NCBI GenBank assembly: GCA_001029775.1
Contig: CP011215.1
Location: 357,722 to 421,721, forward strand
Source: Candidatus Campbellbacteria bacterium GW2011_OD1_34_28
Lineage (GTDB): Bacteria > Patescibacteriota > Minisyncoccia > Phycocordibacterales > UBA12079
Direction: 5' to 3'
DNA length: 64,000 bases
Position numbers and translations under genes: made by a program. The notes under the pieces were generated by a model. It was given only the letters and a program-made list of their open reading frames with translations. It did not search any database and was not told the origin of the DNA. Positions 1,795-63,144 of the stretch are shown in pieces; the stretch's first letter is position 1; each line of letters starts with the position of its first letter.

Positions 1795-2103
1795 ATGAAA
1801 ATTAGAAAAGACGATAAAGTAATAGTGATTGCTGGAAAAGACAAAGGCAAAACAGGTAAAGTTTTGAAGGCTATTCCCGCTGAAGACAAAGTTGTTGTTG
1901 AGGGTGTTAATCTTAAAAAGAAACATCAAAAAGCAAACAAAAGCGGAAAAAAAGGCCAAATTATTGATAAAATTTTTCCAATTCACGTTTCTAATGTTAT
2001 GTTGGCTGATCCAAAATCAGACAAACCAACAAGAATTGGTAAGAAATTGGTAGGAGACAAGTTTGTTAGGATTGCTAAAAAGAGCGGAACAACTCTAAAA
2101 TAA
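1795..2103 (+). CDS. rplX: 50S ribosomal protein L24
   Basis: KIRKDDKVIVIAGKDKGKTGKV KOW motif. Confidence 0.92.
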   Translation: MKIRKDDKVIVIAGKDKGKTGKVLKAIPAEDKVVVEGVNLKKKHQKANKSGKKGQIIDKIFPIHVSNVMLADPKSDKPTRIGKKLVGDKFVRIAKKSGTTLK

Positions 2104-2108
2104 TATCT

Positions 2109-2678
2109 ATGGAAACATTAAAAGAAAAAAAGAATAAAATTTTTGATTTGATGAAAGGTGAGTTTGGTTATACAAATGTTATGCAAGCTCCAAAAATTGA
2201 AAAAATTGTTGTTTCTGTTGGTATTGGTTCTGTAAATGATAAAAATAAAATAACCCTTATTGAAGACCGAATCACAAAAATTACTGGACAAAAGCCATCT
2301 GTAAGAAAAGCAAAGAAATCAATCGCTGCTTTTAAATTGAGAGAGGGAACAGAAGTTGGATATCAAGTAACATTGAGAGGTCCAAGAATGATGTCTTTTT
2401 TTGATAAACTAGTAAATGTTGCATTGCCAAGAATGAAAGACTTTAGAGGTTTGACAACAAAAGGTGTAGATTCAATCGGAAATTATACTTTGGGATTGAG
2501 AGAACACACAATTTTCACAGAAGCATCTGATGAAGAATTGAAAAATGTTTTTGGTTTGGCAATTACAATTGTAACAACAGCAAAAACAAAAGAAGAAGCT
2601 ATTACTTTGTTAAAAAATCTAGGATGGCCATTTAAAAAGCAAGAAGATGAGCCAAAAAAGAAAAGAAAGATTAAATAA
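2109..2678 (+). CDS. rplE: 50S ribosomal protein L5
   Basis: 189 aa; conserved L5 core (KIVVSVGIG, GYQVTLRG). Confidence 0.95.
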   Translation: METLKEKKNKIFDLMKGEFGYTNVMQAPKIEKIVVSVGIGSVNDKNKITLIEDRITKITGQKPSVRKAKKSIAAFKLREGTEVGYQVTLRGPRMMSFFDKLVNVALPRMKDFRGLTTKGVDSIGNYTLGLREHTIFTEASDEELKNVFGLAITIVTTAKTKEEAITLLKNLGWPFKKQEDEPKKKRKIK

Positions 2679-3373: not shown

Positions 3374-3514
3374 GGAATTTGAAATTTGAAACATTTGAAT
3401 TTTAAAATCTTAAAATTACAAAAAGTAAAAAGTTCGCACGGGAGTTTTATTGAAGTATGAATTTTTTAATTTTTGACTTTAAAAATAATTGATATTTGAG
3501 AAATAAAAAATCAC

Positions 3515-3548
3515 CCAGCAGAAGCGCTTCTGCTGGGTGATGTGGTTG
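3515..3548 (-). terminator. Minus-strand rho-independent terminator (tcacccagcagaagc-gcttctgctgggtga + T-run on minus strand)
   Basis: 14-bp perfect stem; on minus strand followed by TTTTTTATTT. Confidence 0.6.
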
Positions 3549-4092
3549 GTGTCCTCGGACGCGTTCCGAGAACCCCCAGAGGCCGGCTTTGTGCCGGTTT
3601 ATCCGTGGAGGGGAATTTCACCCCTCCTGATCGATGGTCGCCGATGTGGGGCGTGTCCTTGACCCAAAACGCAGGCAATCTGACTTGCGTCTGTCGTTGG
3701 CACATGCCGTTGGCAACCTTCCTTGCCGTCGGTATCTCCACCGGAATCATCTATCGTGGCCTGCTAGCAAGCCACAACTCCTCCGGTACCGACTTCCAGA
3801 ATCCGTCAAGACGCTTTTTGTCTTCCATGGCGTGGCGGAACCAGTCTAAAATCGCTATGCGTGGCGATTCTCGACGGGATTTTCTCGTGCGACTGGCCCA
3901 GTATTTTAGGGCCGGCCGGTCTTGGAACTTCAGCCGAAGGCTATCGGGCAGGTGGTGGTGGCCCCGGCGACGATCGAAATCCGTTCGGGTCGCGGGGGTG
4001 CAGGGGTCTGGTTGTCGGCTTTCAGCAAGGTTTTGGCGATTGCGGGATGTCCTTTGTTCATGGCGTTTTTTCCTCCTCTGTTGTGGTTGGTG
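3541..4092 (-). other. GC-rich (~58-60%) ~0.55 kb non-coding island flanked by 11-bp direct repeats TGTGGTTGGTG; candidate structured RNA or foreign insertion
   Basis: GC far above the window background. All ORFs here are R/W/P-rich nonsense in every frame. Direct repeats at 3541-3551 and 4082-4092. Minus-strand terminator abuts it. Contains a 44-codon minus-strand ORF with a GGAGGA SD. Confidence 0.4.
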
Positions 4093-4430
4093 AAGAACAA
4101 TATTTTATAAAAACATCTTAGCACTCGTCAAAAATTTGTCAAGTGTTTATTTTGTATACATCTTTTGTTTTTATCGTATTTTTGTAATTCAAAATTAGAT
4201 ATTCAATTAAAATTTTAAATTTGAAATTACCTCCATACCCTAAACGCTATATGCTAAACCCTATTAGAATGTTGACTTTGAATCAGGTCTTTGATAAGAT
4301 ACTGTCTAGTTAATTAAAGCCTTGCGCTTTATTAGCGACGTAGAGTGAAAGAAATGAAAATTCATTTTCATTTCTGAACCGAGGAGCTAATATAAGGGCG
4401 CCTGCCGCTTTTATTTTAATTTTAAAAACA

Positions 4431-8483: not shown

Positions 8484-8800
8484 TAAAAAGGTGTAAGGAA
8501 TAAGGTATAAGTAGTAAGTGGGCGGGAAATTTGCTTCGCAAATTTCCCGCCCTGTTCGTTTCTAAATTTTAATATAATTCGTCTTTGCGAGCGAAGCGAA
8601 GCAATCCACGTCGTTCGTCGTGTTTTAAAAATTATTTCATTAAAAATTGTTTATAAATTAAAAATTATAAATTAAAAATTATAAATTAAAAATTTTAACT
8701 CCTATTTTCTAAATTCTCACTACTTACCCCTCACACCTTTCTCCTTACCCCTTACTACTTAGAGTTAATATGTTATAATCCAATTCATATAATTAAACAT
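8484..8800. repeat. Composite MITE-like repeat region with ~40-bp imperfect inverted ends
   Basis: 8492-8520 is the inverted complement of 8715-8760. Interior holds the hairpin gggcgggaaatttgc-ttcg-caaatttcccgccc, repeat family A (8581-8610) and a 14-bp AT tandem repeat x3 (8650-8695). Confidence 0.45.
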
Positions 8801-10635: not shown

Positions 10636-11165
10636 TGACGTGGATCGCGTCGGCTTCGCCTCGCGAAGACGATCCGCACGAACAACGTGGACCTGCCTCT
10701 TTTCTGAAAGAAAAGCAACGACACGGCGAGGCAGGTTGTTTCATTGCGTTCGCAATGACAAATTTCTAAAAGAAATTTGTCACCTTCGTCGTCATTGCGA
10801 GCGTAGCGAAGCAATCCATCATGAACTGTTTGTCCGAAATTAATGGACGTGGACCTGCCTGCCGGCGAGGCAGGTCGCTTCGGCTTCGCCTCGCGAAGAC
10901 GACCCGCACGAACAACGTGGACCTGCCTGCCGGCAGGCAGGTCGCTTCGTCGCTTCGTTGCACTCCGCTTCTCGCGAAGACGAAGCCACGTCGTCATTGC
11001 GAGCGTAGCGAAGCAATCCAGGACGACGAACAACTCAAAATAAACGACGTGGATTGCTTCACTTCGTTCGCAAAGACGGAATTTCTCAAAACGAAATTCC
11101 GTCACCTTCGTCGTCATTGCGAGCGTAGCGAAGCAATCCATAACAACTCGGTCTTGCAAAGAAAA
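10636..11165. repeat. Dense cluster of nested palindromic repeats (families A, B, C); non-coding
   Basis: Three forward copies of cgtcgtcattgcgagcgtagcgaagcaatcca (10788, 10990, 11110) plus an inverted copy at 11045. A 48-bp unit is duplicated (10650/10880). cctgcctgccggcaggcagg palindromes. Irregular spacing. Confidence 0.75.
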
Positions 11166-11347: not shown

Positions 11348-14300
11348 ATGAGGGAAGAAATTATTTTAAATAGTAAAAAATTTCTCTCACTGAAAACTGC
11401 TGCGAGAGAAACAAACTATACCAATGACTACATTGGTCAGCTTTGTCGTTCAGGCAAAATCAATTCTCAAATGGTAGGAAAAATTCGTTTTGTGGAAGAA
11501 GATTCCTTGCTTGAATATGTTAAAAAAGCGAATGGTTTTGTAGATATAAAATATGCAGATATTGAAAATATTGCTATCAAAAATAACAAGGATCTCGGCG
11601 ATTTCTCGTCTGTACGAGATACTGATTTTGCTCATTTCCGTCAAGACAAAGCCAACAGTTTGTATGTAAACATTTTTGAAACAGTTTTCTCTAAAAAAGT
11701 AGTTCATGTCTATATCGCAATACTTGTTTTGTGTGGATTGTTTTTTGGTAGTACTTTGGACATACAAGGAGGTTTTGCAAAAATAAAAAATAAATCTGCC
11801 GAAGGATTGGCAAAAATTGTCATGGGAGCAAAAGTGGCGTCTGACAAAATTTCGGAAACGACATTAGCTGTTGCAAATGGCGAGATTGATTACGAAAAAG
11901 TTTATAAAAATTACTCAAATTTTTTAGGAGAGATGTCCGTTGATTTTGCCGAAGGTGAAGTAAAGTATTTCAAAAATGTTACTGGTGTAGGTAGCAAAGT
12001 AACCGAAGCAATTTTTAATCCAAGCGATACTTTTGTAACAGTTAAAACAGAGACAAAAAAAATTCAGGGAAGTGTAGAAGAAATAATTTTTGGTGGTGTG
12101 ATTTATTTTGAAAATCTTTCTACTAATTTAATTCGTGTAAATGAAAAAATTTCTCAAAATGGTTTTGCACAAGAAAAAAATTTGGCATTGTTGAGTCAAG
12201 ACAGTTTTGGATTTACAGAAAAATTTGCAATTACTTGGTATAGAACGATATCAGGTTTTTTTAGTTCCGCTGAAAAAATAGCCGACAGCACGGACGAAGC
12301 TGACAGCGGACAGCTAACAACCAACAGCACAGACGAAGACGACTCGTCCGTCTTTGCGAGCGATAGCGAAGTAATCCAGGAAGAAGACGAAGCCAACAGC
12401 CAACAGCCAACAGCTAACAGCACGAACCAAAACACAACCATCGTTACAAACCCAATCAGAGAAATCATAAAAGAAACCGTTGTAGAAAGAGTTATCCAAA
12501 CATCAGGCGTCACACTGGAAGATCTACAAAAACTAAACAACGAACTCCGAAGTGAAATCTACAAACTCTCATCAAATACAAATGCTCAAATCACCAACAC
12601 CTACCAAGTCATCTCTGCTACTAACAACATCGACAATCTGGGTAGTGTCACAATCACCGACTCAAACATCAGTTCCTCAAATGTCTCAGGAACAGAACTA
12701 AGCTTTACCAACGGAACAATTCAAAACCTAACTGTCACAGGCACAGCTACCTCTACATACGGTGGCCCTATTTCTGCAACCAGTGGAACATACTCTGGCA
12801 ATCTAACCGTAACAGGCAACACCACTCTAAACACTCTTACCGTATCAGGAGACACAATCTTTGACACAGACACTCTTTACATCGATTCAATCAACAACCG
12901 TGTAGGCATCGGATCAACAACACCCACAGATACTCTTTCAATAAACGGAGCAACATACCTTGCACCAATATCAGCTCCATCAATCACAACCGACAGACTT
13001 TACAACATCTCCAATGATTTATACTGGGGTGGTAATCTTTTATCAGGTTCTGCCGTTGGTAATTGGACATCCAACGGAACAGATGTTTGGAGAGCATCAG
13101 GAAATGTGGGTATCGGCACATCATCACCATCTTCAGATTACAGACTATCTGTTCAAGGTAACACTTACATCAAAGGTAATCTTAGGGTAAACGGAAATAC
13201 TACAATTTCAGATAGCGGAGAATTAACAGTCGGAGACAAAGTTATCTCAGAAGGAGAAATCGGAGTTGGAACATCTTCTCCCTATGCCAAACTATCTATC
13301 CAAGGAACAACTGTTTCCACAACCACTTTTGGTATCTATGGTTTTGCAAATCAAACACAGTCTCTCTTTGATGTATATGACAATCCTACGAATAATTTAA
13401 ATGTGTTTAGAATCACGAGTGATGGCAGCGTCGGTATCGCTACATCATCACCTTTTAGAAAGTTGAGTGTAGAAGGTAGTGCGTGGATTAGTGGAGACTT
13501 AACAGCCAACAGTTTCACTGCTACTTCTTCAATGAGCGCTCCTTACTTTACTGCAACAGACTCAAGTGCAACAAGTACTTTTGCAGGAGGCTTGGCTGTT
13601 GGAACAAACAAATTTGTTGTTGATTATTCTACGGGAAATGTGGGGGTGGGGACGGTGAGTCCGGATCAAAAATTGGATGTAAATGGCTGGGGTCGTTTTG
13701 AGGGGGCTGGGTCTACAAATCGTAGTGATTCTGGTGCAATAGAGTTTTATAACAATAATGCTTCATCTCTTAATGTGCAAGCTCAAATAAAGGGTCTACG
13801 AGGTATAGGTTCATATAATTCTGGTCAATTGGGATTTTTCACTAGACTAGCGGGTACACTTTATGAGCGAATGACACTAGATGAAAACGGCAACGTCGGC
13901 ATTGGGACGATGGTGCCGGGATATAAATTGGATATTGCTGGTTCTGTGGCAGCCCCGACGACTTTACTTGTCCAAGCAGGAGGCATAACTGAAAATACTG
14001 GGAATGCTTTTCGTGTTTATAGAAACAGAGCTTCCTCTTCTACAAACGCTCCGTTAGTAGATTTTATAAATGATGCAGCAACGGATGACCAGCCACTTTT
14101 TAGACTTCAACAAGATGCACCAGCTGATATTCTCCAAGTTTTTGATGGAGCAACTCAAGTGTTTACAATCCTAGACGGCGGCAACGTCGGGATCGGCACC
14201 ACTTCACCTCTCGCAAAACTATCTGTCAAAGGAGCAGGAACAACCACAGGCATAAACTTCCAAACAACCAATTCGGCTGACACTCCGTTGGTGACTGTTT

Positions 14301-17300
14301 TGGATAGTGGGAATGTGGGAATTGGGACGGTGAGTCCGGGAGCGAAGCTTGAAGTTTTTGGCGACATGATAATAGGAGACGTGACGAATGGAAGCGTTTT
14401 TAGATATAATCCAACCACGAACACGATTGTGAACGGTGCACATGAAAATAGTATAGGTGTTGGTTCCTCAAATTCTATAATAGCTGCAGGAGGAGCTACT
14501 GCAAGTTCTAATATCAATAGTATTGGAACTGATTCTTACGTGACTACGATTAGTGGTGGATACGATAACACAATTGGAAATGACTCTCCTGCCGCAACTA
14601 TCAGCGGGGGTGCTCACCATCGAATAGATACAGGAGGAACACATGGAACAATAGGTGGTGGATCAACCAACACCATACAGGCCGGCGGAGATTATGGTTT
14701 CATTGGAGCAGGATTGAGTAATATTGTTGGAGGCACATATGCGTTCATAGGAGCAGGAAGCAACAATGTGGCTACAGGATTTAGATCTGCCGTCATGGGA
14801 GGTTATTCTAATGATGCAACGGGTCAATATGCCACCATTCCTGGCGGTTGGGGTAATGCCGCATCGGGTGATTATTCTTTTGCTTTCGGTTATAGGGCGA
14901 ATGCTGCCGCGACTGGCGTGGTTGTATTCAAAGATTCAGTAAACGCGCAATATACGGTTAATACAACTAATATGTTTGGAGCGAATTTCACAGGTGGTTA
15001 TCAGTTGCTCGGTGGTAACGTCGGCATCGGCACCACCTCACCTTTCGCAAAACTCTCTGTCAAAGGAGCAGGAACAACCACAGGTGTAAACTTCCAAACA
15101 ACCAATTCGGCTGATACTCCGTTGGTGACTGTTTTGGATAGTGGGAATGTCGGTATTGGGACGACGAATCCTGGAGCAATGTTGGAGTTATCTTCTATAA
15201 GTATTAATGGTTCAGTTTTACGTTTATCTAATAATAATAATACAATTGCCCAAGGTGAAGAATTAGGAAGTATAGAATTTTTTAGTGGAGATAATAGTGG
15301 TTCTTACCCAGATACAGTAAAAGCAAAGATTTTATCTCTCACTGAAGATTCTGTAAGTCGTGATGGAAATCTAGTTTTCAAAACTTCACTTTTGTCTGAT
15401 GCCTCACCAGTAGAAAGAATGAGAATAAATAGTAATGGCAACGTCGGCATTGGTTCCACCTCACCTTTTGCAAAACTATCCGTCAAAGGAGCGGGAACAA
15501 CCACAGGGATAAACTTCCAAACAACCAATTCGGCTAACACTCCTTTGGTGACTGTTTTGGATAGTGGAAATGTTGGTATTGGGACGACAGCGCCTAGTGA
15601 AAAATTAGAAGTTGCTGGAAATATTTTGTTATGGAATAGTGTCAATGATAATACATTAAGATTTAAAGATAATAATGTCGCTCACGGATTAACTGACCTT
15701 GTTTCTACATATATACATACTGAATTAAGAAATGAAGATGTGTCAGCAGGAGGAACAAGACTATTGGGGGTTACTGATCAGGATCTTGCCTCAGGAATTA
15801 ATTTGTATGGAGTGTTGGGTGTGACTGACCCAACTGATACTGTTCCTGCAATTAAAATTAATGGGGCAAAGAAAAACACTACTAATGTGCAATCTCTTGG
15901 AAACTTAGAAACAGTTTTTCAGGTTCAAAATAATACTTCCCCGTTATTGACTTTATTGGGAAATGGCAACCTCGGTATCGGCACCACCTCACCTTTTGCA
16001 AAACTTTCCGTCGTCGGAGATGTTGTTGCCGACTATTTCAACGCAACTTCAACCACAGCAACATCAACATTCGCTGGCGGTTTAACAGTGGGAACAAACA
16101 AGTTGGTGGTGGATAGGAGTACGGGCAACGTCGGAATCGGGACGGCGAGTCCGAGTCAAATGTTATCAGTTGGCGCAAGCAGTCAGTTTACGGTTACTTC
16201 AGCAGGTGTCGTAACCGGACAAAATTTTGCAGTAACCAGTGGGGCTTATGTAATAGATGTCAGTAACGGTTTAAGGTTGTATTCAAATGGTGGTCTGGGA
16301 ATAAAATTTACGACTTGGGATGGCAGCTATGTTGATAGGATGGTCGTTTCAACAACAGGTAACATCGGCATCGGCACCACTTCACCTTTTGCAAAACTTT
16401 CAGTAACAGGAACCGGAACAGGCACTGGCTCGGCTTTTCAAGTTGCCGATTCTGCCAACTCACCAAAATTTACTGTTTTGGATAATGGGAATGTGGGGGT
16501 GGGGACGGTGAGTCCGACTCAAAAATTAGACGTTAATGGAAATATTCATTTAGGATCCAGCGTTGATGATTTAACAACGAGAAATATATATTTGGCCTCC
16601 AATCGTTATTTAAGCCTTACTTCTACAGGGCTAGATGTTTCGAACTGGTATGGTTCCGATGGCAGCGCTCATAAAGTTGGGTTTAATGGGAAAGAAGTAT
16701 TGGTGGTTGGATCTAACGGAATTGTTGCTATAGGCAATAATATTAATGGCGGTCCTGGTGATTACATGCCTCTTGTTTTACAGGGAAATGAATCGGGCGA
16801 TGTATTAATTAAAAGCGATCAATATCAATGGGGCGTTGATACGCGTCCAATAAGAATAATTACAGATGACCCCTATGCCAATACCGGACAGACTTTAAAT
16901 GCTGGAAATATAGTTCTTCAAACAGGAATAGGGACAAATGGAGGAGCAACAGGAATAATAAAATTTGAAATTGGTGCATCTGGTTCTGAAAAAATGCGAA
17001 TTGACACTTCTGGCAACATCGGCATCGGCACCACCACCCCATGGAGAACTCTTTCCGTAAACGGAACAGCTGCTTTCACCGGTCTAACCAACGACGGAAC
17101 AGGTTATTACGCTTGTATATCAACCAACGGAGAACTAGCCACATCAACAACCGCTTGTGGAGCATCGTCAGAAAGATTTAAAACAAACATAAATGATCTA
17201 ACATACGGTCTAGACACAGTCCTTCAACTACGCCCTGTATCTTTCAACTGGAAATCAGACTTTATCAATTCTTCTTCAACTCAAATCGGATTTATTGCAG

Positions 17301-18079
17301 AAGAAGTTGATTTGTTAATCCCAGAAGTCATCGGACACGATGACAAAGGTAACATCATGAACCTTGATTATCCAAAGTTGACGGCGGTCTTGGTAGGTGC
17401 AATGAAAGAACTTAATACAAAAATCTCGGCTATTGCTTCTTCGACCCCAATCGTCTCAACAGGAATTGTTGATTCCGTTCTATCTCATCTAGAAAGTTTG
17501 GGTGCAAAATTTGTTGACGGTATTGCTTACTTCAAAGATGTTGTCGTAAAAACTTTGACAGCAGAAAAGGTTATCACAAATGGAATTGAGATGGTGGACG
17601 AAGTAACAGGAGAAATATATTGTGTGAGAATTCAAAACGGAGCGATGGTTAATATTGCGGGAACTTGTGATACAGCTAATAGCCAACAGCCAACAGCAGA
17701 ACCTTCAAACACCACTCCTCCCACAATAACAATCACAGGCAACAACCCAGCCGTAGTAGAAATAAACAGCAACTATATTGATCTAGGTGCTACAGCAGTA
17801 GACTATCAAGGAAACTCTCTAATAGTAGATACAATAGACGCAGATACAGTAGACACAACAACAGCAGGAGAATACACAGTTACTTACACAACATTTGATG
17901 GAACACTGACTTCAACAAGTACAAGAACAGTACTTGTTGAAGATTCAACAGCTGTAACAACAGAACCAGCAACGACAACAGAGCCAACAGCAACGACAAC
18001 AAATCCTGTGGTAGAACCGACAGCTACGACGACAGATCCAGTGGTAGAACCGACAGCGACAACGACAGAGCAGATTTAA
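11348..18079 (+). CDS. Giant (2243 aa) membrane-anchored fibre-like surface protein. Order: N-terminal HTH-like segment, TM helix, many GNVGIGTTSPxAKLxV and Hep_Hag-like beta-roll repeats, peptidase-S74 intramolecular chaperone domain, C-terminal Ig-like (DUF5011-type) domain and Thr/Pro-rich tail.
   Basis: Single uninterrupted ORF. The S74 motif is SSERFKTNINDL...PVSFNWKS...GFIAEEV...PEVI...DYPKLTAVLVGAMKELN. The Ig-like motif is ITITGNNPAVVEINSNYIDLGATAVDYQGN...GEYTVTYT. Confidence 0.85.
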   Translation: MREEIILNSKKFLSLKTAARETNYTNDYIGQLCRSGKINSQMVGKIRFVEEDSLLEYVKKANGFVDIKYADIENIAIKNNKDLGDFSSVRDTDFAHFRQDKANSLYVNIFETVFSKKVVHVYIAILVLCGLFFGSTLDIQGGFAKIKNKSAEGLAKIVMGAKVASDKISETTLAVANGEIDYEKVYKNYSNFLGEMSVDFAEGEVKYFKNVTGVGSKVTEAIFNPSDTFVTVKTETKKIQGSVEEIIFGGVIYFENLSTNLIRVNEKISQNGFAQEKNLALLSQDSFGFTEKFAITWYRTISGFFSSAEKIADSTDEADSGQLTTNSTDEDDSSVFASDSEVIQEEDEANSQQPTANSTNQNTTIVTNPIREIIKETVVERVIQTSGVTLEDLQKLNNELRSEIYKLSSNTNAQITNTYQVISATNNIDNLGSVTITDSNISSSNVSGTELSFTNGTIQNLTVTGTATSTYGGPISATSGTYSGNLTVTGNTTLNTLTVSGDTIFDTDTLYIDSINNRVGIGSTTPTDTLSINGATYLAPISAPSITTDRLYNISNDLYWGGNLLSGSAVGNWTSNGTDVWRASGNVGIGTSSPSSDYRLSVQGNTYIKGNLRVNGNTTISDSGELTVGDKVISEGEIGVGTSSPYAKLSIQGTTVSTTTFGIYGFANQTQSLFDVYDNPTNNLNVFRITSDGSVGIATSSPFRKLSVEGSAWISGDLTANSFTATSSMSAPYFTATDSSATSTFAGGLAVGTNKFVVDYSTGNVGVGTVSPDQKLDVNGWGRFEGAGSTNRSDSGAIEFYNNNASSLNVQAQIKGLRGIGSYNSGQLGFFTRLAGTLYERMTLDENGNVGIGTMVPGYKLDIAGSVAAPTTLLVQAGGITENTGNAFRVYRNRASSSTNAPLVDFINDAATDDQPLFRLQQDAPADILQVFDGATQVFTILDGGNVGIGTTSPLAKLSVKGAGTTTGINFQTTNSADTPLVTVLDSGNVGIGTVSPGAKLEVFGDMIIGDVTNGSVFRYNPTTNTIVNGAHENSIGVGSSNSIIAAGGATASSNINSIGTDSYVTTISGGYDNTIGNDSPAATISGGAHHRIDTGGTHGTIGGGSTNTIQAGGDYGFIGAGLSNIVGGTYAFIGAGSNNVATGFRSAVMGGYSNDATGQYATIPGGWGNAASGDYSFAFGYRANAAATGVVVFKDSVNAQYTVNTTNMFGANFTGGYQLLGGNVGIGTTSPFAKLSVKGAGTTTGVNFQTTNSADTPLVTVLDSGNVGIGTTNPGAMLELSSISINGSVLRLSNNNNTIAQGEELGSIEFFSGDNSGSYPDTVKAKILSLTEDSVSRDGNLVFKTSLLSDASPVERMRINSNGNVGIGSTSPFAKLSVKGAGTTTGINFQTTNSANTPLVTVLDSGNVGIGTTAPSEKLEVAGNILLWNSVNDNTLRFKDNNVAHGLTDLVSTYIHTELRNEDVSAGGTRLLGVTDQDLASGINLYGVLGVTDPTDTVPAIKINGAKKNTTNVQSLGNLETVFQVQNNTSPLLTLLGNGNLGIGTTSPFAKLSVVGDVVADYFNATSTTATSTFAGGLTVGTNKLVVDRSTGNVGIGTASPSQMLSVGASSQFTVTSAGVVTGQNFAVTSGAYVIDVSNGLRLYSNGGLGIKFTTWDGSYVDRMVVSTTGNIGIGTTSPFAKLSVTGTGTGTGSAFQVADSANSPKFTVLDNGNVGVGTVSPTQKLDVNGNIHLGSSVDDLTTRNIYLASNRYLSLTSTGLDVSNWYGSDGSAHKVGFNGKEVLVVGSNGIVAIGNNINGGPGDYMPLVLQGNESGDVLIKSDQYQWGVDTRPIRIITDDPYANTGQTLNAGNIVLQTGIGTNGGATGIIKFEIGASGSEKMRIDTSGNIGIGTTTPWRTLSVNGTAAFTGLTNDGTGYYACISTNGELATSTTACGASSERFKTNINDLTYGLDTVLQLRPVSFNWKSDFINSSSTQIGFIAEEVDLLIPEVIGHDDKGNIMNLDYPKLTAVLVGAMKELNTKISAIASSTPIVSTGIVDSVLSHLESLGAKFVDGIAYFKDVVVKTLTAEKVITNGIEMVDEVTGEIYCVRIQNGAMVNIAGTCDTANSQQPTAEPSNTTPPTITITGNNPAVVEINSNYIDLGATAVDYQGNSLIVDTIDADTVDTTTAGEYTVTYTTFDGTLTSTSTRTVLVEDSTAVTTEPATTTEPTATTTNPVVEPTATTTDPVVEPTATTTEQI

Positions 18080-38884: not shown

Positions 38885-38957
38885 GCCATCTTAGCTCAGT
38901 TGGTAGAGCAACGGTTTTGTAAACCGTAGGTCCTCGGTTCGAATCCGAGAGATGGCT
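38885..38957 (+). tRNA. tRNA-Thr (anticodon UGU)
   Basis: Cloverleaf: acceptor gccatct/agatggc, D-arm gctc-agttggtag-agc, anticodon stem acggt/accgt with loop tttgtaa, T-arm ctcgg-ttcgaat-ccgag. Confidence 0.85.
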
Positions 38958-39147
38958 CAGAAAAAGTTTACAGTTAACAGTAAACAGTTTACAGTAACAA
39001 AAAAATCCCTGCGGGGATTTTTTGTTTGTTGCTCTAACGACTGAGCTAGCTCAGTAGGATAAAAAGCAAACTGCTTTGCTTTTTATCCGGTTTTTGCTTT
39101 AGCAAAAAATTTCCGTTATCGAGTGAAGCGAGATAGGAAATAGGTGG

Positions 39148-39181
39148 GAGAGCAACGGTTTTGTAAACCGTAGGTCCTCGG
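39148..39181 (+). other. Partial duplicate of tRNA-Thr (D-stem 3' strand through T-stem 5' strand)
   Basis: agagcaacggttttgtaaaccgtaggtcctcgg identical to the intact tRNA; remaining T-loop/acceptor piece at 39483-39498 beyond the GIY-YIG gene. Confidence 0.6.
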
Positions 39182-39473: not shown

Positions 39474-39575
39474 AATTGAGTGCTGGGTTAAAATCCGAGA
39501 GATGGCTCAGAAAAAGTTTACAGTTAACAGTAAACAGTTTACAGTAACAAAAAAATCCCTGCGGGGATTTTTTTG

Positions 39576-56490: not shown

Positions 56491-58182
56491 ATGAGACTTT
56501 TAAATAGAAAAAATAGATTTAATGGAGAAATAGATCCAGATGAAATCTTTCTGGATTCTTCAAACTTGCCGAAATTTAATAAACAACAGTTTGAAGGAAC
56601 AATAGAAAAACCAATTGGGAAAAAGACTTTTTTCTTTTTTGGTTTTTTCTTTTTTCTTGTTCTGGCAATTTTTTCTTCAAAGATTTTTGCTCTACAGATT
56701 ATTGATGGGGAGAAAAATTTTTCAAAATCGGACAGTAATCGTCTAGATCATTTTGTGGTTTTTTCTGAGAGAGGCCTCGTATATGATAGAAATGGAAAAG
56801 AGCTTGTTACAAATGAACTAAGTAGCACCACTGAAGAAACACACAATAAAAGATCTTATATAAAAAAAAGTGGTTTATCTCATGTGTTGGGTTATGTGAC
56901 TTATCCTCAAAAGGATAGTTCCGGAAATTACTATGAAACAAAAACTATCGGAAGAGATGGTGTTGAGAAAATTTTTGATGAAAAATTGAATGGCAAAAAT
57001 GGAACAAAACTTATTGAAGTAGATGCTTTGGGACAAGTTATCTCTGAGGCAATTTTTGAACCATCAATTGAAGGTGAAAATATAACGCTATCTATAGATT
57101 CCGAATTGCAAGCTTATATGTACGAAACAATACGAACACTTGCAAACAGAGTCCATTTTACGGGTGGTGCTGGTGTGATTATGGATGTAACAAACGGAGA
57201 AATCTTGGCTTTGACCAATTATCCCGAATACAGCTCGGACGTTCTTTCAAACAGCGAGGACAATAATCTAGTTGCAGGCTATATTTTTGATGAAGGCAAT
57301 CCTTTTTTGAATAGGGTAACATCTGGTTTATATATTCCGGGATCTATCGTAAAACCTTTTATGTCTTTGGGTGTTTTGAACGAGGGATTGATTGATCCCA
57401 AAAAACAAATTTTGAGTACTGGTTCTATCTCTATTCAAAATCCTTATAATCCAGATCAAAAAACTGTTTTCAAAGATTGGAAAGCTCATGGGTGGGTAGA
57501 TATGCGACAAGCAATTGCTGTTTCTTCCGATGTTTATTTTTATGCTGTTGGAGGGGGATATGGTGATCAAAAAGGATTGGGAATTACAAAGATAAATGAA
57601 TATATGAAAATGTTTGGCTTCGGCAAACCGACTGAGGCCGAAGTTACCAAAGAAGAAATTGGAAATGTTCCAAATCCTGAATGGAAAAAAGAAAATTTTG
57701 AAGGAGAGGATTGGACATTGGGAAATACTTATCACACATCTATTGGACAATATGGTTTTCAGGTAACCCCCTTGCAAGCAGTTCGCGCGACCGCTTCTGT
57801 CGCTAATAATGGGTATTTGTTGAAACCCACTTTTATTAAAGACAGTGAATTAAATAAAAAATATCCAGAGAGAATTCCTATTGATTTAAATAATTTTAAA
57901 ATCGTAAAAGAGGGGATGCGACAGGCGGTTACAGAAGGAACCGCCCAGGGTCTCAGTGTCCCTTATACAAAAGTTGCGGGGAAAACAGGTACCGCCGAAT
58001 TGGGTGTAAGTAAAAAATATGTTAATGCTTGGATAATAGGGTTTTTTCCTTATGAAAATCCAAAGTATGCTTTTGCTGTGATAATGGAACATGGGCCAAA
58101 AGAAAATACTGTTGGAGGTTTGTATGTAATGCGTCAGACTTTGGATTGGATGAGTATCAACAGACCTGAGTATTTTAAATAA
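56491..58182 (+). CDS. mrdA: Penicillin-binding protein 2 (elongasome transpeptidase)
   Basis: SIVKP (SxxK), SSD (SxN), KTGTAE (KTG). Confidence 0.9.
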   Translation: MRLLNRKNRFNGEIDPDEIFLDSSNLPKFNKQQFEGTIEKPIGKKTFFFFGFFFFLVLAIFSSKIFALQIIDGEKNFSKSDSNRLDHFVVFSERGLVYDRNGKELVTNELSSTTEETHNKRSYIKKSGLSHVLGYVTYPQKDSSGNYYETKTIGRDGVEKIFDEKLNGKNGTKLIEVDALGQVISEAIFEPSIEGENITLSIDSELQAYMYETIRTLANRVHFTGGAGVIMDVTNGEILALTNYPEYSSDVLSNSEDNNLVAGYIFDEGNPFLNRVTSGLYIPGSIVKPFMSLGVLNEGLIDPKKQILSTGSISIQNPYNPDQKTVFKDWKAHGWVDMRQAIAVSSDVYFYAVGGGYGDQKGLGITKINEYMKMFGFGKPTEAEVTKEEIGNVPNPEWKKENFEGEDWTLGNTYHTSIGQYGFQVTPLQAVRATASVANNGYLLKPTFIKDSELNKKYPERIPIDLNNFKIVKEGMRQAVTEGTAQGLSVPYTKVAGKTGTAELGVSKKYVNAWIIGFFPYENPKYAFAVIMEHGPKENTVGGLYVMRQTLDWMSINRPEYFK

Positions 58183-58189
58183 AAATAAA

Positions 58190-58470
58190 AAAGAGGGAGC
58201 CAAAGCTCCCTCGTTTGTGACGTTACGAAAATAATTTTCTACATCCTTTCAGCAACAGGATTGCATTAAGGGATGGTTATTTCCGTGGTTGATCGTAATC
58301 CTGTATTTACGACCAGTCTGATTACTCACTCTCACAACTGTCGTTCCCCCTTGAGGACATGGTTCATTTCGGTCGTGGCTTTCATCTTTTATTTTCCCTC
58401 GCCGGTACTTTTGGGCTTTAATGCACGTCACAGCATCAAGCCCTAATTCCCAACTTTCGTTGTGGGATAC
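58190..58470 (-). ncRNA. Candidate ~275-nt structured sRNA (unclassified) with own promoter and terminator
   Basis: Minus-strand TTGACT-17-TATATT promoter (+ coords 58499-58504 / 58476-58481). GC-enriched body with multiple hairpins and no credible ORF. Terminator gagggagctttggctccctc + U-run at 58186-58215. Confidence 0.4.
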
Positions 58471-58556
58471 GAGTAATATATTAAATTAAGAGTATAAAGT
58501 CAATGACTTGTGGTTTTTTGGGCAATATTGTGGTAAAATGACATCTATATAAAATT

Positions 58557-59018
58557 ATGGCAAAAGAATACTTAACAAAAGAAAGATACGAAGAGCTTAA
58601 GAAGGAACTTGAGAATCTTACGACTGTCAGAAGAAAAGAAATCGCAAACGAGCTTGATCAAGCCGTTTCTTTAGGCGATTTGAAAGAAAATGCCGAATAT
58701 CATCAGGCAAGAGAAGATCAGGCAAATTTGGAACAGAGAATTTTACAAATAGAAATGATTTTGCAAGACGCAGAGGTTGTTAAGGGTAGCAAAAAAGATA
58801 TAGCCGGAGTAGGAAGCGAAGTAAAAATTTGTAAAAAAGGTGAAAAAGATTGTGTAATTTATAAAATTGTCGGAGCCGAAGAGGCAGATATGACAGTTAG
58901 AAAAATTTCATCAAGCTCTCCTTTGGGTATGGCAATGCTAGGAAAAAAAGTAGATGATGTTTTCACTTTTAGTGCTCCTAAAGGCAAAATGGAATACACA
59001 ATTATTGAAATAAAATAA
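58557..59018 (+). CDS. greA: Transcription elongation factor GreA
   Basis: LTKERYEELKKEL...GDLKENAEY. Confidence 0.92.
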   Translation: MAKEYLTKERYEELKKELENLTTVRRKEIANELDQAVSLGDLKENAEYHQAREDQANLEQRILQIEMILQDAEVVKGSKKDIAGVGSEVKICKKGEKDCVIYKIVGAEEADMTVRKISSSSPLGMAMLGKKVDDVFTFSAPKGKMEYTIIEIK

Positions 59019-59053: not shown

Positions 59054-60664
59054 GTGGAAAACAAAACAGAAACAAAGCATTGGAGTGAATCTTTTGCCGA
59101 CGAGGTGTTGGAAAAATCTCCTAATAAAAATATCTATACTTGTTCGGCTGGAATCAGCCCATCGGGCACTATTCACTTTGGAAATTTTAGAGATGTAATC
59201 ACTTCTCTCGGTGTTTTTGAAGAATTAAAGAAAAGAGGTAAAAAAACGAGAATAATTTTTTCTTGGGACGATTTTGATCGTTTTAGAAAAGTGCCCGTAG
59301 GGATAGACGCTTCTTTTGAGCAATACATCGGATTGCCGTTGTCAGTAGTCCCTTGTCCCGAAGGAAAATATTCTTCTTATGCAGAAAAATACGAAAAAGA
59401 ATTTGAAGCCTCAATGAAAGATTTGGGAATTGATTTGGAATATCGTTATCAGTCACAAGAATATAAATCTGGAAAGTATGACGATTTGATTATAAAGGCC
59501 CTTCAAAACAGAGAGAAAATCGCTGATATTCTTTTGTCTTTTATGACAGAAAAAGGAAAGGAAAACAAAAGTATTGATCCACAAGAATACAAAAAAAACT
59601 TTTATCCTGTTTCCGTTTATTCTTCTTTTACAGGCAAAGACAATACAAAAGTGACGGCCTATGACGGAGATAAAAAAATTACCTATAAGTGTTTTGATAC
59701 AAAAAAGGAAGAAACTATTGATATTACAGAAACAAGAATCGTCAAGTTGGCATGGAAAGTAGATTGGCCAATGAGGTGGTTTTTTGAGGGGGTAGATTTT
59801 GAACCAGGAGGAAAAGACCACTCTTCTCCGGGGGGCAGTTTTGATGTAGCAAGTGTTATTGTGAAAGAAATTTTTGAAAGTGCTGCTCCTGTTTTCAAAG
59901 GTTACGAGTTTGTTGGATTGCAAGGGCTAGGGGGAAAAATGTCTGGATCAAAAGGGAACAGTGCTTCTCCAAAACAGTTGTTGGAAATTTATACTCCAAA
60001 TATTTTAAAATGGCTGTATCTGAGAAAAAGACCAAAACAAAGTTTTTTGTTGGCTTTTGATTCTGAGATCTATAGACAATACAGTGAGTTTGATAAAGAG
60101 GTTGCCGATTTTCTTTCTGGGACTTTAGACATTTCTAGTCGGGTATCTCTTGCTTTAGCGGGACTGACAAAAGAGAATTCTTTTAAAAACCCGATTCCAT
60201 TTAGACAGATAGTCGGTTTTGGGCAAATTGTACAATGGAATAAAGAAAAATTGTTAACTATTTTGAAAGAGCTTGAACTTGATTATGATATTCAATCTAT
60301 TGATGACAGACTGCCAAGAGCGAAAGCGTGGTTGGAAACATACAACAGAGATGAACTTGTAGAGTTGAGAGAAAATATAAATATTGATTTTGTAAAAACA
60401 ATTTCTGAAAAAGATAAAGAAAATATTCAAAAATTGAGAGAGGGATTATCGGTAAATGAAAAGATGTCGGTGAAAGAATTGGAAACTTTTGTTTATGATA
60501 TTCCAAAGGACAAAAATTTGGACGAAAAAGAAAATGCTGTTTTGCAAAGAGATTTTTTCAGAGTGGTTTATAACCTTTTAGTTAGCAAAGACAAGGGCCC
60601 GAGACTCTCAACATTTTTGTGGGCGGTGGATAGGGAAAAGGTTCTTGCTCTGTTGAAAATTTAA
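59054..60664 (+). CDS. lysK: Lysyl-tRNA synthetase, class I
   Basis: HWSESFADEV, SPSGTIHFGNFRDV (HIGH-like), SWDDFDRFRKVP, KMSGSKGN (KMSKS); GTG start. Confidence 0.85.
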   Translation: MENKTETKHWSESFADEVLEKSPNKNIYTCSAGISPSGTIHFGNFRDVITSLGVFEELKKRGKKTRIIFSWDDFDRFRKVPVGIDASFEQYIGLPLSVVPCPEGKYSSYAEKYEKEFEASMKDLGIDLEYRYQSQEYKSGKYDDLIIKALQNREKIADILLSFMTEKGKENKSIDPQEYKKNFYPVSVYSSFTGKDNTKVTAYDGDKKITYKCFDTKKEETIDITETRIVKLAWKVDWPMRWFFEGVDFEPGGKDHSSPGGSFDVASVIVKEIFESAAPVFKGYEFVGLQGLGGKMSGSKGNSASPKQLLEIYTPNILKWLYLRKRPKQSFLLAFDSEIYRQYSEFDKEVADFLSGTLDISSRVSLALAGLTKENSFKNPIPFRQIVGFGQIVQWNKEKLLTILKELELDYDIQSIDDRLPRAKAWLETYNRDELVELRENINIDFVKTISEKDKENIQKLREGLSVNEKMSVKELETFVYDIPKDKNLDEKENAVLQRDFFRVVYNLLVSKDKGPRLSTFLWAVDREKVLALLKI

Positions 60665-62283: not shown

Positions 62284-62433
62284 TTGTATTTAAAAATAAA
62301 ATAAAAAACCCCGCACGAATGCGGGGTTAGACAGACGGGGAGAGGTTCTTGTTCTCCAACCAGCTTCGTTGACGAAGGGGTTGAAATTACCCTTTTAGGG
62401 GACTCGTGGTCCCACCCTGCTGTCTTTTCGAGG

Positions 62434-62655
62434 CTACTCGTTGATCGGAGGAAACGCCTCCGCAACAAGCTTGTTCGCCATATCGGTGGCGAATTCCCGG
62501 GCCTCATCGGGGCTGATTCTCAGCTCAGCTGCCGTCGTCCCGATTTGTCGGGCCACCACGTTGGGCATCAAACTGCCGATGCCCTTTGACCGCGCCTGGT
62601 TTAAAACAAGCAGGTACGCGATCTGGTTTCTTCTTTCTTCTGTCATCTTTGCCAT
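62434..62655 (-). CDS. GC-rich (~58%) small hypothetical protein (74 aa), possible DNA-binding regulator
   Basis: GGAGG SD 7 nt before ATG. Inverted repeat TTCACGAAGGATTCGTGGAA upstream at ~62680. Minus-strand terminator ccccgcattcgtgcgggg + U-run at 62293-62316. Confidence 0.5.
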   Translation of the reverse strand: MAKMTEERRNQIAYLLVLNQARSKGIGSLMPNVVARQIGTTAAELRISPDEAREFATDMANKLVAEAFPPINE

Positions 62656-63144
62656 AGGAAACCTCCTTTTCGGCAATTTTTCCACGAATCCTTCGTGAAT
62701 AGGGTAGCAGAGAATCCTCAAACTACAATACAATTATACATCATATATTTGTATTTGTAAATGGTGTGAGTTTCATAAAATTCACAAACTTGGTTTTTGC
62801 TTAATACTTATACCTTAATCCTTAAGCCTTGGTTTCTATACCCTAACCGCTACACCCTATACCCTGAATGAGTTTTCCACAATTGACAAATCTTTTTGTT
62901 GACAAACTGTTATTTTTTAGATAAACTCTTACCCATCATATATCGGATCTAAGATTGAGTTTCGGCAGAACCCCTGATATTTATTAATAGCGCGCACATT
63001 AATAAAACCGTCCGAGGCAGAAGGATGGTCAAATTTATTTTGTTTAAGGGTGATATTAAATAAGAAAAAGTTAGAGAAACCTCTTTGAGGTGACTTTTTT
63101 GTTTTAGTATTGTCAATTTTATTAGCGAAAAAATAGAAAACATC

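Follow-up and report, generated by a model that had tools for sequence, protein, structure and literature searches.

A candidate orphan RNA gene with predicted sarcin-ricin modules between mrdA and greA in a member of Paceibacterota

We analysed a 64,000-nucleotide stretch of contig CP011215.1 (hereafter the window) and found that the gap between its genes mrdA and greA very probably holds an independently transcribed, non-coding, structured RNA gene of ~275 nucleotides (nt) on the minus strand. The gap measures 374 nt, with the mrdA stop at 58182 and the greA start at 58557, and three minus-strand elements lie within it: a promoter, a GC-enriched body, and a terminator hairpin with its tail. 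An orphan structured RNA gene of this size, strand and place had been put forward in an original prediction made from the bare sequence, and it is upheld here by conserved signals, by covariation, by the absence of a conserved open reading frame (ORF) and by the absence of a matching Rfam family. The predicted RNA is a new orphan family of structured bacterial non-coding RNA (ncRNA) with a narrow known distribution. We read it as a trans-acting RNA that binds protein, as a ribonucleoprotein (RNP) or a decoy, and our blended figure for the gene together with this role is roughly 0.55; the role taken by itself is a tentative preference, held at less than even odds.

Six distinct sequences were compared, namely that of the window and five further homologues (labelled L001, L081, L146, L179 and L180), and in every one the RNA lies in the mrdA-greA gap, on the strand opposite to both genes. 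When genomes representing species were scanned with GreA as the anchor, 80 Paceibacterota loci were obtained, among which only the closest (L001, GreA 95%) carried a homologue. Searches with the GreA and MrdA proteins, followed by 12 contig look-ups, added L081 and L082 (Campbellbacteria RIFCSPLOWO2; GreA 78%, MrdA 73%), L179 (MrdA 96%) and L180 (MrdA 93%). A metagenome scan with an invariant 17-mer of the RNA returned 88 matches, three of which belong to the family: L146, whose identity to the window is about 97-98% along 6.4 kb, together with L134 and L155, both of which match L081. The other 17-mer matches were large-subunit (LSU) ribosomal RNAs (rRNAs) or chance occurrences, e.g., one within a ClpV-like ORF of L169. 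Judged from the GreA and MrdA relatives, the host is a Campbellbacteria-like member of Paceibacterota, within the Candidate Phyla Radiation (CPR/Patescibacteria).

The RNA was not found in relatives whose MrdA or GreA is ~71% identical or less (L084, L085, L178, L181 and L182), nor did nhmmer and a covariance model find it in about 90 Paceibacterota loci that are more distantly related. When the covariance model was built on the 5' domain, only the six members were recovered from 712 kb of Paceibacterota loci. As sampled, the family is either very narrow or evolving too fast to trace. A different unit of ~165 nt, running from promoter to terminator, occupies the mrdA-greA position of another relative (L083, GreA 70%; 1960-2140, minus strand). 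It has a similar -35 context, two 5' hairpins, an A-rich linker and a 7-nt long-range complement (GUAACGC/GCGUUAC) directly before a strong terminator; nhmmer and the covariance model did not detect it, and its fold is no better than that of shuffles (z = -1.15). This unit may be a diverged or truncated orthologue.

The promoter is of the sigma-70 type (58475..58503, minus strand), with a -35 hexamer TTGACT (58498-58503), a 17-nt spacer and a -10 hexamer TATATT (58475-58480). Its near-consensus character, recognised at the outset in the single sequence, extends to all six homologues, in which TTGACT, TATAYT and the 17-nt spacing are constant while the sequence of the spacer varies. The promoter fits 10/12 consensus positions; as 1.8 such matches are expected per 900 nt, a single one does not exceed chance. 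Transcription would start near 58468. At the other end lies an intrinsic terminator (58183..58212, minus strand), which consists of the hairpin GAGGGAGC-UUUG-GCUCCCUC (58193-58212) and a U-run. A terminator scan gave it as GAGGGAGCUUUGGCUCCCUC then UUUUUUAUUU, an 8-bp GC-rich hairpin reported in the minus orientation only. Each of the six sequences has a strong terminator with a long U-run, and the stem carries a compensatory change from G-C to A-U in L179. It had also been proposed to serve mrdA from the other strand; this is plausible but weaker, the plus-strand tail of the hairpin being GTTTGTGACG. The locus thus has what is expected of a generic small RNA (sRNA) gene, a conserved promoter of its own and an intrinsic terminator. 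The body between them (58213-58468) has a GC content of 43.4% as compared to 35.0% for the AT-rich window, which is ~1.5 standard deviations above the mean and roughly the 93rd percentile of 256-nt windows. The enrichment is real, but to call it well above background was somewhat generous, as three other islands of the window reach 57-59%.

Conservation typical of a protein-coding gene was sought on both strands of the six sequences and was not found: no ORF of at least 25 codons is conserved, and frame, start and length all differ. The locus does contain a 60-aa GTG ORF (58249-58431, minus strand), which had already been judged implausible, and a 57-aa plus-strand ORF with a hydrophobic C-terminal half, on which a small protein gene or a type I toxin-antitoxin pair could be built. 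However, neither ORF is conserved across the homologues, and the 60-aa ORF is already broken in the ~98% identical L146. Homologues differ by single-nucleotide insertions and deletions, and base-pairing, not codons, governs the substitutions; for example, the only AUG at a suitable distance from a Shine-Dalgarno sequence overlaps a GAU triplet that covaries with AUC as a helix. We regard a coding function as extremely improbable. The helices also tell the strand: G-U pairs outnumber A-C pairs by 31 to 2, and the RNA is therefore that of the minus strand.

The structure was derived by RNAalifold and manual comparison of the six-sequence alignment. Standard pairs make up 94.3% of its 353 pair cells, and when the partners were slid by 1-3 columns as a control, the paired fraction was only 33-45%. 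Covariation, which the original prediction had named as a means of checking the gene, is present in at least eight helices, with changes on both sides in 14 pairs, a number reached by none of 500 shuffles. The body without its terminator is more stable than dinucleotide shuffles in all six sequences (z from -1.7 to -4.6); for the RNA of the window with its terminator, z is -3.6.

The helices are given here in the order of the minus strand. The 5' hairpin H1 (58448..58467), UCCC-AC-AAC-GAAA-GUU-GGGA (UCCCACAACGAAAGUUGGGA), shows compensatory changes and has a loop of the GNRA type (R, purine; N, any base) in five of the six sequences (GAAA, or GGCA in L081), with AAAA in L179; in L081 its inner stem is swapped for a longer, different one. 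It is followed by H2 (58413..58443), GGGCUU-GAUGC-UGUGACGU-GCAUU-AAAGCCC, in which the loop is invariant and the stem changes by compensation from G-C to A-U in L081 and from U-A to C-G in L179. Both hairpins had been read correctly from the single sequence. The arm H3-H4 (58320..58386) is made of a 5' strand GAU-GAAA-GC-CACGAC, the hairpin H4 and a 3' strand GUUGUG-AGA-GU-GAGUA-AUC. Covariation in H3 includes GAU/AUC to GGC/GCC in L001 (H3a) and C-G to U-A in three sequences, and the variable H4 (58339-58359), though it occurs in two sequence types, is kept as a hairpin in each of the six. H6 (58289..58316), CUGGUCGU-AAAUACAGGAUU-ACGAUCAA, is the strongest helix, with covariation at 7/8 positions; its cognate duplexes average -12.8 kcal/mol as compared to -6.9 for non-cognate strand pairings, and its loop contains the invariant motif ACAGGA (58299-58304). 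Finally, H7 (58225..58286), formed by ACGGAAAUA and UAUUUUCGU, shows compensatory pairs, and in L001 it has lost one nucleotide from each strand. It encloses the variable arm H8-H9 (58242-58275), the apical loop of which is UCCUGU (58255-58260).

Two tertiary contacts are suggested by complementary segments. The H6 loop ACAGGA probably pairs with the H9 loop UCCUGU, to which it is complementary; both sides are invariant, and ACAGG and CCUGU are the only invariant islands in the most variable part of the RNA. In addition, the H2 loop UGUGACGU (58425..58432) is proposed as the 5' strand of a pseudoknot with ACGUCACA (58216..58223), a segment 4 nt upstream of the terminator. The two strands are perfectly complementary over 7-8 nt and invariant in the six sequences, so that this loop-to-tail pairing offers no covariation; chance alone would give about two 7-mers of this kind in 270 nt. 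The loop-loop contact appears the more persuasive of the two because its hexamers are the sole fixed islands in an otherwise variable region.

A third hairpin of the original prediction, CGACCG...UGGUCG, is possible but competes with better-supported pairings, CACGAC/GUUGUG and CUGGUCGU/ACGAUCAA. It belongs to a three-way complementarity (58309-58378), in which CACGACCG has two possible partners, GUUGUG (H3c) and CUGGUCG, the second of which can also pair with ACGAUCAA of H6. Most homologues, though not L081, where it is mismatched, allow the alternative pairing of CACGACCG with CUGGUCG, and L001, L179 and L180 show double changes in it; the pairing may reflect a switch, an intermediate of folding or a coincidence. 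If it were a switch, the RNA would be an orphan riboswitch-like sensor of a ligand or signal, whose alternative pairings gate termination and hence read-through antisense to mrdA. The terminator does face the mrdA 3' end, and CGAGGGA occurs both in an invariant junction and as the terminator 5' strand. However, a conserved sequence that could sequester the strands of the terminator was looked for and not found (the sole candidate, UCCCUU of H8, is in the hypervariable part), the terminator is strong throughout, riboswitch families are unmatched, and the alternative pairing is much less supported than H6. We consider a switch distinctly unlikely.

The invariant 17-mer, AAGUA-CC-GGCGA-GG-GAA (58394..58410, minus strand), lies between H2 and H3 and shows no difference among the six homologues. 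The fold predicted for it is a sarcin-ricin hairpin, here called module 1, in which AGUA and GAA surround a 2-bp stem and a pentaloop. Module 2 would be the internal loop of H3 (within 58320..58386), where GAA(A) stands opposite (G)AGUA with the correct strand polarity (GAU-GAAA-GC versus GY-GAGUA-RYC). The sarcin-ricin consensus is AGUA/GAA (PMC1865062), and a test of the sequence pattern, AGUA opposite GAA with flanking helices, finds these two invariant instances in the RNA.

The likeness of module 1 to rRNA was recognised because the 17-mer matched LSU rRNAs in the metagenome scan, where it occurs exactly, at the corresponding place of the molecule. Nucleotides 241-256 of E. coli 23S rRNA read AGUA-GC-GGCGA-GC-GAA and agree with module 1 at 14/16 positions; the two differences lie in the 2-bp stem and compensate each other (G-C to C-G). 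The same rRNA element is a crystallographic sarcin-ricin instance in H. marismortui (23S 212-215/225-227; PMC1865062). A special case of protein binding would follow, in which the hairpin imitates 23S 241-256, or resembles the sarcin-ricin loop, and titrates a protein of the ribosome, a factor for its assembly or modification, or a toxin directed against it. Outside module 1, however, there is no rRNA similarity: the best local alignment to E. coli 23S scored 26, which 19 of 300 shuffles equalled or exceeded, and on this ground an LSU rRNA fragment or pseudogene was rejected. The alignment to E. coli 16S was no better than shuffles, and the LSU rRNA model had no match at E<=10 on the locus. 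The 23S used for this comparison was that of E. coli, and since sarcin-ricin modules recur in unrelated RNAs, a shared design does not imply shared ligands. Mimicry of rRNA is in our view quite unlikely.

The design was also seen in a third context. The same 16-mer, AGUACCGGCGAGGGAA, is found at 420-470 of L184 (IMGVR_UViG_3300037245_003526, 244 kb), a large phage contig, where a GGGGAGG/CCCCCCU hairpin bears it in its loop at an apparently intergenic site. The three matches of the 16-mer to viral contigs had no similarity outside the motif region, and a phage BLAST gave zero matches.

What the RNA might do is suggested by what is fixed in it. Junctions and loops are invariant while helices vary, which points to an RNA with a defined three-dimensional shape. 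No ORF follows the RNA gene on the minus strand, where mrdA is convergent, and control of a coding gene in cis is thus unlikely. On the other side, greA is transcribed divergently and, from reading of the sequence, appears to have an extended -10 of its own (TGGTAAAAT, 58531-58539); the two promoters would then face away from each other, and the gap would be something other than a leader of greA. Sarcin-ricin modules are classical protein-recognition elements. The fixed junctions and loops, the sarcin-ricin modules, the GNRA loop, the probable tertiary contacts and the absence of a downstream gene together lead us to favour, tentatively, a trans-acting RNA bound by one or more proteins over an antisense RNA or a cis-acting leader. 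In such an RNA, the 5' core (H1, H2, an invariant purine-rich junction and the H3-H4 arm) would carry the two sarcin-ricin modules as invariant surfaces for protein recognition; the 3' part would consist of the fast-evolving arms H6 and H7-H9, whose loops pair with each other, and the H2 loop would pair with the segment directly upstream of the terminator.

A base-pairing sRNA, antisense in trans, would also have its own promoter and intrinsic terminator, and it could use the long invariant purine-rich stretch (AAAAGUACCGGCGAGGGAAAAUAAAAG), which is probably partly single-stranded, or the conserved loops as a seed. This reading is rather unlikely, given how long the RNA is and how nearly complete its structure: its helices covary, it has recurrent three-dimensional modules, and the invariant 17-mer suits a self-contained hairpin module. 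The complement of the 17-mer with up to three mismatches occurs nowhere in the 64-kb window except in the gene itself. There is no Hfq or CsrA homologue in the window, which is only a fraction of the genome: CsrA and RnpA were unmatched and Hfq gave a non-significant match (E 0.9, 20 aa), with approximate query proteins that make these searches indicative only.

The domains of the RNA evolve at very different rates. Between the window and L146, third-codon identity is 95.6% in mrdA and 99.3% in greA; within the RNA, the two agree fully (100%) in the H3/H4 segment and the terminator region, and identity is 95.2% from H1 through H2 to the junction but falls to 70.9% in the 3' domain (58233-58318). 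For this domain, the sequence nearest to that of the window is found in L179 (89%) and not in L146 (72%), and the H3c/H4 module comes in two types, one shared by the window, L146 and L081 and the other by L179, L001 and L180. Both patterns conflict with the relatedness of the flanks, and helices are preserved throughout the mosaic. The likely causes are recombination among diverged alleles, diversifying selection on the peripheral arms, or a combination of the two. A second copy of the 3' domain, as a template repeat for hypermutation of the kind performed by diversity-generating retroelements, was not found in the window. The picture is one of fixed loops and junctions beside peripheral helices that are reassorted among strains and outpace synonymous sites nearby in their divergence.

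Such evolution could also be that of a decaying or selfish remnant, derived from a mobile element or a former leader RNA, which survives by chance in a young clade and serves no cellular function. The very narrow distribution, the very fast and mosaic evolution of two modules, and the presence of other GC-rich, foreign-looking islands and repeats in the window are in line with it. However, promoter hexamers, terminator, junctions and loops are fixed while the helices change by compensation, which argues for purifying selection on a fold, and flanking repeats, a transposase and a phage match were all looked for and not found. CPR genomes are tiny, with little spare DNA, and a conserved, structured RNA gene of ~275 nt that has a promoter of its own is therefore unlikely to be idle. 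A remnant seems improbable to us. As a long shot, the preferred protein-binding RNA could be a clade-specific RNP component whose rRNA-like sarcin-ricin hairpin is offered, as a decoy or as a docking site, to a factor associated with ribosomes or to a toxin that targets them, and whose arms are recombining allelic cassettes under diversifying selection. The RNA would then be a player in a conflict or compatibility system and not a housekeeping RNA.

Several points weigh against the gene and its proposed protein-binding role. The transcript is a predicted one, read from sequence, and the protein partner, target or ligand is putative. The sarcin-ricin modules are assigned from sequence pattern and context alone. 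Both tertiary pairings join invariant strands, so that covariation is silent on them, and, as said, a 7-nt complement arises about twice by chance in 270 nt. The six sequences are distinct but related and come from one narrow clade, which leaves the covariation statistics low in power. The pairing of CACGACCG with CUGGUCG hints at a switch, which is at odds with a static RNP. Lastly, the very fast mosaic evolution of the 3' domain could equally mean that this half is under weak constraint.

To our knowledge, almost nothing has been established about the ncRNAs of uncultured CPR lineages. The RNA described here is a well-delimited candidate for a new family, with two predicted sarcin-ricin modules, a probable loop-loop contact and a possible pseudoknot. 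If it binds a ribosomal or transcription-related factor, it would offer a testable route into regulation in CPR bacteria; if no such factor is bound, it would be one more orphan motif of narrow distribution.

The genes around the gap are all on the plus strand in the ORF list, with mreB-mreC-mreD-mrdA on one side and greA-lysK(class I)-rpsP on the other. A class I lysyl-tRNA synthetase (PF01921) follows greA in the window (59054-60664), L081, L083 and L179, and the class I enzyme is found in the RNA-bearing loci and L083 wherever the gene after greA is on the contig. A class II lysyl-tRNA synthetase stands at the same place in L084, L085, L174 and L175, which are relatives without the RNA.

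Elsewhere in the window, two GC-rich islands, at 3505-4125 and 62300-62660, have 57-59% GC in the 35% GC background. Each contains a short minus-strand ORF after a strong ribosome-binding site of the GGAGG type, and each is closed by a GC hairpin with a T-run; the island at 3505-4125 continues past its ~64-aa ORF with ~400 nt of GC-rich sequence that lacks a convincing ORF. Both had zero Rfam matches at E<=1, and they look like foreign small genes or further RNAs of no known family. GC-rich palindromic repeat units (e.g., TCGTCATTGCGAGCGTAGCGAAGCAATCC and GACCTGCCTGCCGGCAGGCAGGTC) are clustered at 10640-11140 and occur also at 8569, 18144, 24366 and 26741. Similar units are found in other Paceibacterota loci, including L174 and L177, and resemble repetitive extragenic palindromic (REP) sequences or miniature inverted-repeat transposable elements (MITEs). 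The 3' part of a tRNA-Thr gene (38885-38958) and its downstream terminator are duplicated at 39142-39181 and 39480-39573, and these partial repeats look like scars of integrations at the tRNA gene. A 2243-aa ORF (11348-18079) with internal repeat families of ~58-177 nt (D1-D3) probably encodes a large repetitive surface protein.

We compared the RNA with known classes by Rfam 15, at the gathering threshold, at E<=10 on the 501-nt locus and at E<=1 on the whole window; L001, L180, L179 and L081 (all at E<=10) and L083 were searched as well. There were zero matches at gathering scores, and the weak matches were terminator-driven ones only (MicX, L20_leader, sraA, STnc50 and similar). No model of RNase P, 6S, signal recognition particle (SRP) RNA, transfer-messenger RNA (tmRNA), T-box, lysine or other riboswitch, or intron appeared in these scans. 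The original prediction was right to leave the RNA unclassified, as neither the window nor the four homologues match a family.

The one lead it had offered, a partial resemblance to the J3/4 type of sequence in RNase P RNA, did not hold up. Lui et al. (2021) found diverged CPR RNase P RNAs only below the Rfam noise cutoff (PMC8172020), and because some CPR RNase P RNAs need such sub-threshold scores, we examined the anatomy as well. RF00010 and RF00011 gave zero matches at E<=10 on the locus and on L001, L180, L179 and L081, and at E<=1 on the window. The 5' end of the RNA is a local hairpin, and its 5' and 3' ends are unpaired, which leaves no P1. For the P4 3' strand there is no sequence complementary to GUACCGG; the nearest candidate, CUGGU, belongs to H6 and is mutated in L001 while ACCGG is fixed. 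Of the RNase P signature (J3/4-P4 AGGAAAGUCC, J2/4-P4' ACAGAA..GGCUUA, and P1), the RNA has only the string AAAGUACCGG, and its resemblance to the P4 5' strand AAAGUCCGG is, as we read it, a short string coincidence. The other classes were rejected in the same way. For 6S RNA, covariation describes a multi-arm fold with a 5' hairpin and no end-paired rod, and RF00013 is unmatched. A tRNA-like domain and a tag frame, as in tmRNA, were not found by ARAGORN or Rfam; ARAGORN found only two tRNAs and no tmRNA in the window. Rfam had no SRP RNA match at E<=10, and the domain IV (helix 8) motif is not in the sequence. For the T-box there is no minus-strand ORF downstream, the T-box-like string lies ~190 nt upstream of the terminator, and RF00230 is unmatched. 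The lysine and other riboswitch classes were unmatched at E<=10 and again lack a downstream gene.

A highly diverged housekeeping RNA (RNase P, 6S, SRP or tmRNA) would be compatible with the P4-like string and with the sub-threshold scores of CPR RNase P RNAs. Against it stand the silence of the models even at E<=10, the lack of P1 and of the P4 3' strand, and a covariation-supported topology that is neither that of RNase P nor a 6S-type rod. The RNA was also not found at the same locus in relatives or in ~90 other Paceibacterota loci, although rnpB need not be syntenic. We rate this possibility as very improbable.

Compared with known systems, the predicted RNA shares features with several and coincides with none. 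RNase P RNA resembles it in size, at the lower end of its range, in fixed junctions with variable peripheral helices, in a long-range pseudoknot-like pairing and in the short string AAAGU(A)CCGG; in contrast, the present RNA has no P1, P2, P4 or conserved regions CR-I to CR-V and is not universal among relatives. T-box leaders are similar in length, in their intrinsic terminator, S-turn (AGUA/GAA) modules and pseudoknot, in a T-box-like string GUACCG(G)CG and in a nearby aminoacyl-tRNA synthetase gene, but the string here lacks UGG, and the S-turn of module 2 is inverted relative to its arm. With E. coli 23S 241-256 and the sarcin-ricin loop (H95), the RNA has in common the succession of AGUA, 2-bp stem, GGCGA loop, 2-bp stem and GAA; the closing helix of the rRNA, CCCC/GGGG, is missing, and the remainder is unrelated to rRNA. 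The RNAs 6S, Ms1 and CsrB/RsmZ are alike in the architecture of a stand-alone sRNA gene of the abundant type and in possible protein binding, but there is no 6S-type rod and no match to the 6S model, and, unlike in CsrB/RsmZ, GGA motifs are not enriched (about 7 found against about 6 expected by our own estimate) and most are not conserved. The orphan ncRNAs discovered in GC-rich intergenic regions (GC-IGRs) of AT-rich genomes, in discoveries of the Breaker type (e.g., the raiA motif RNA, OLE, ROOL and HEARO), differ from the present RNA, which has no Rfam 15 match, comes from one clade with six sequences, and has a mosaic, fast-evolving 3' domain. Like them, it is predicted to be a stand-alone, GC-enriched gene in an AT-rich genome, with multiple covarying helices, probable pseudoknots and recurrent three-dimensional modules.

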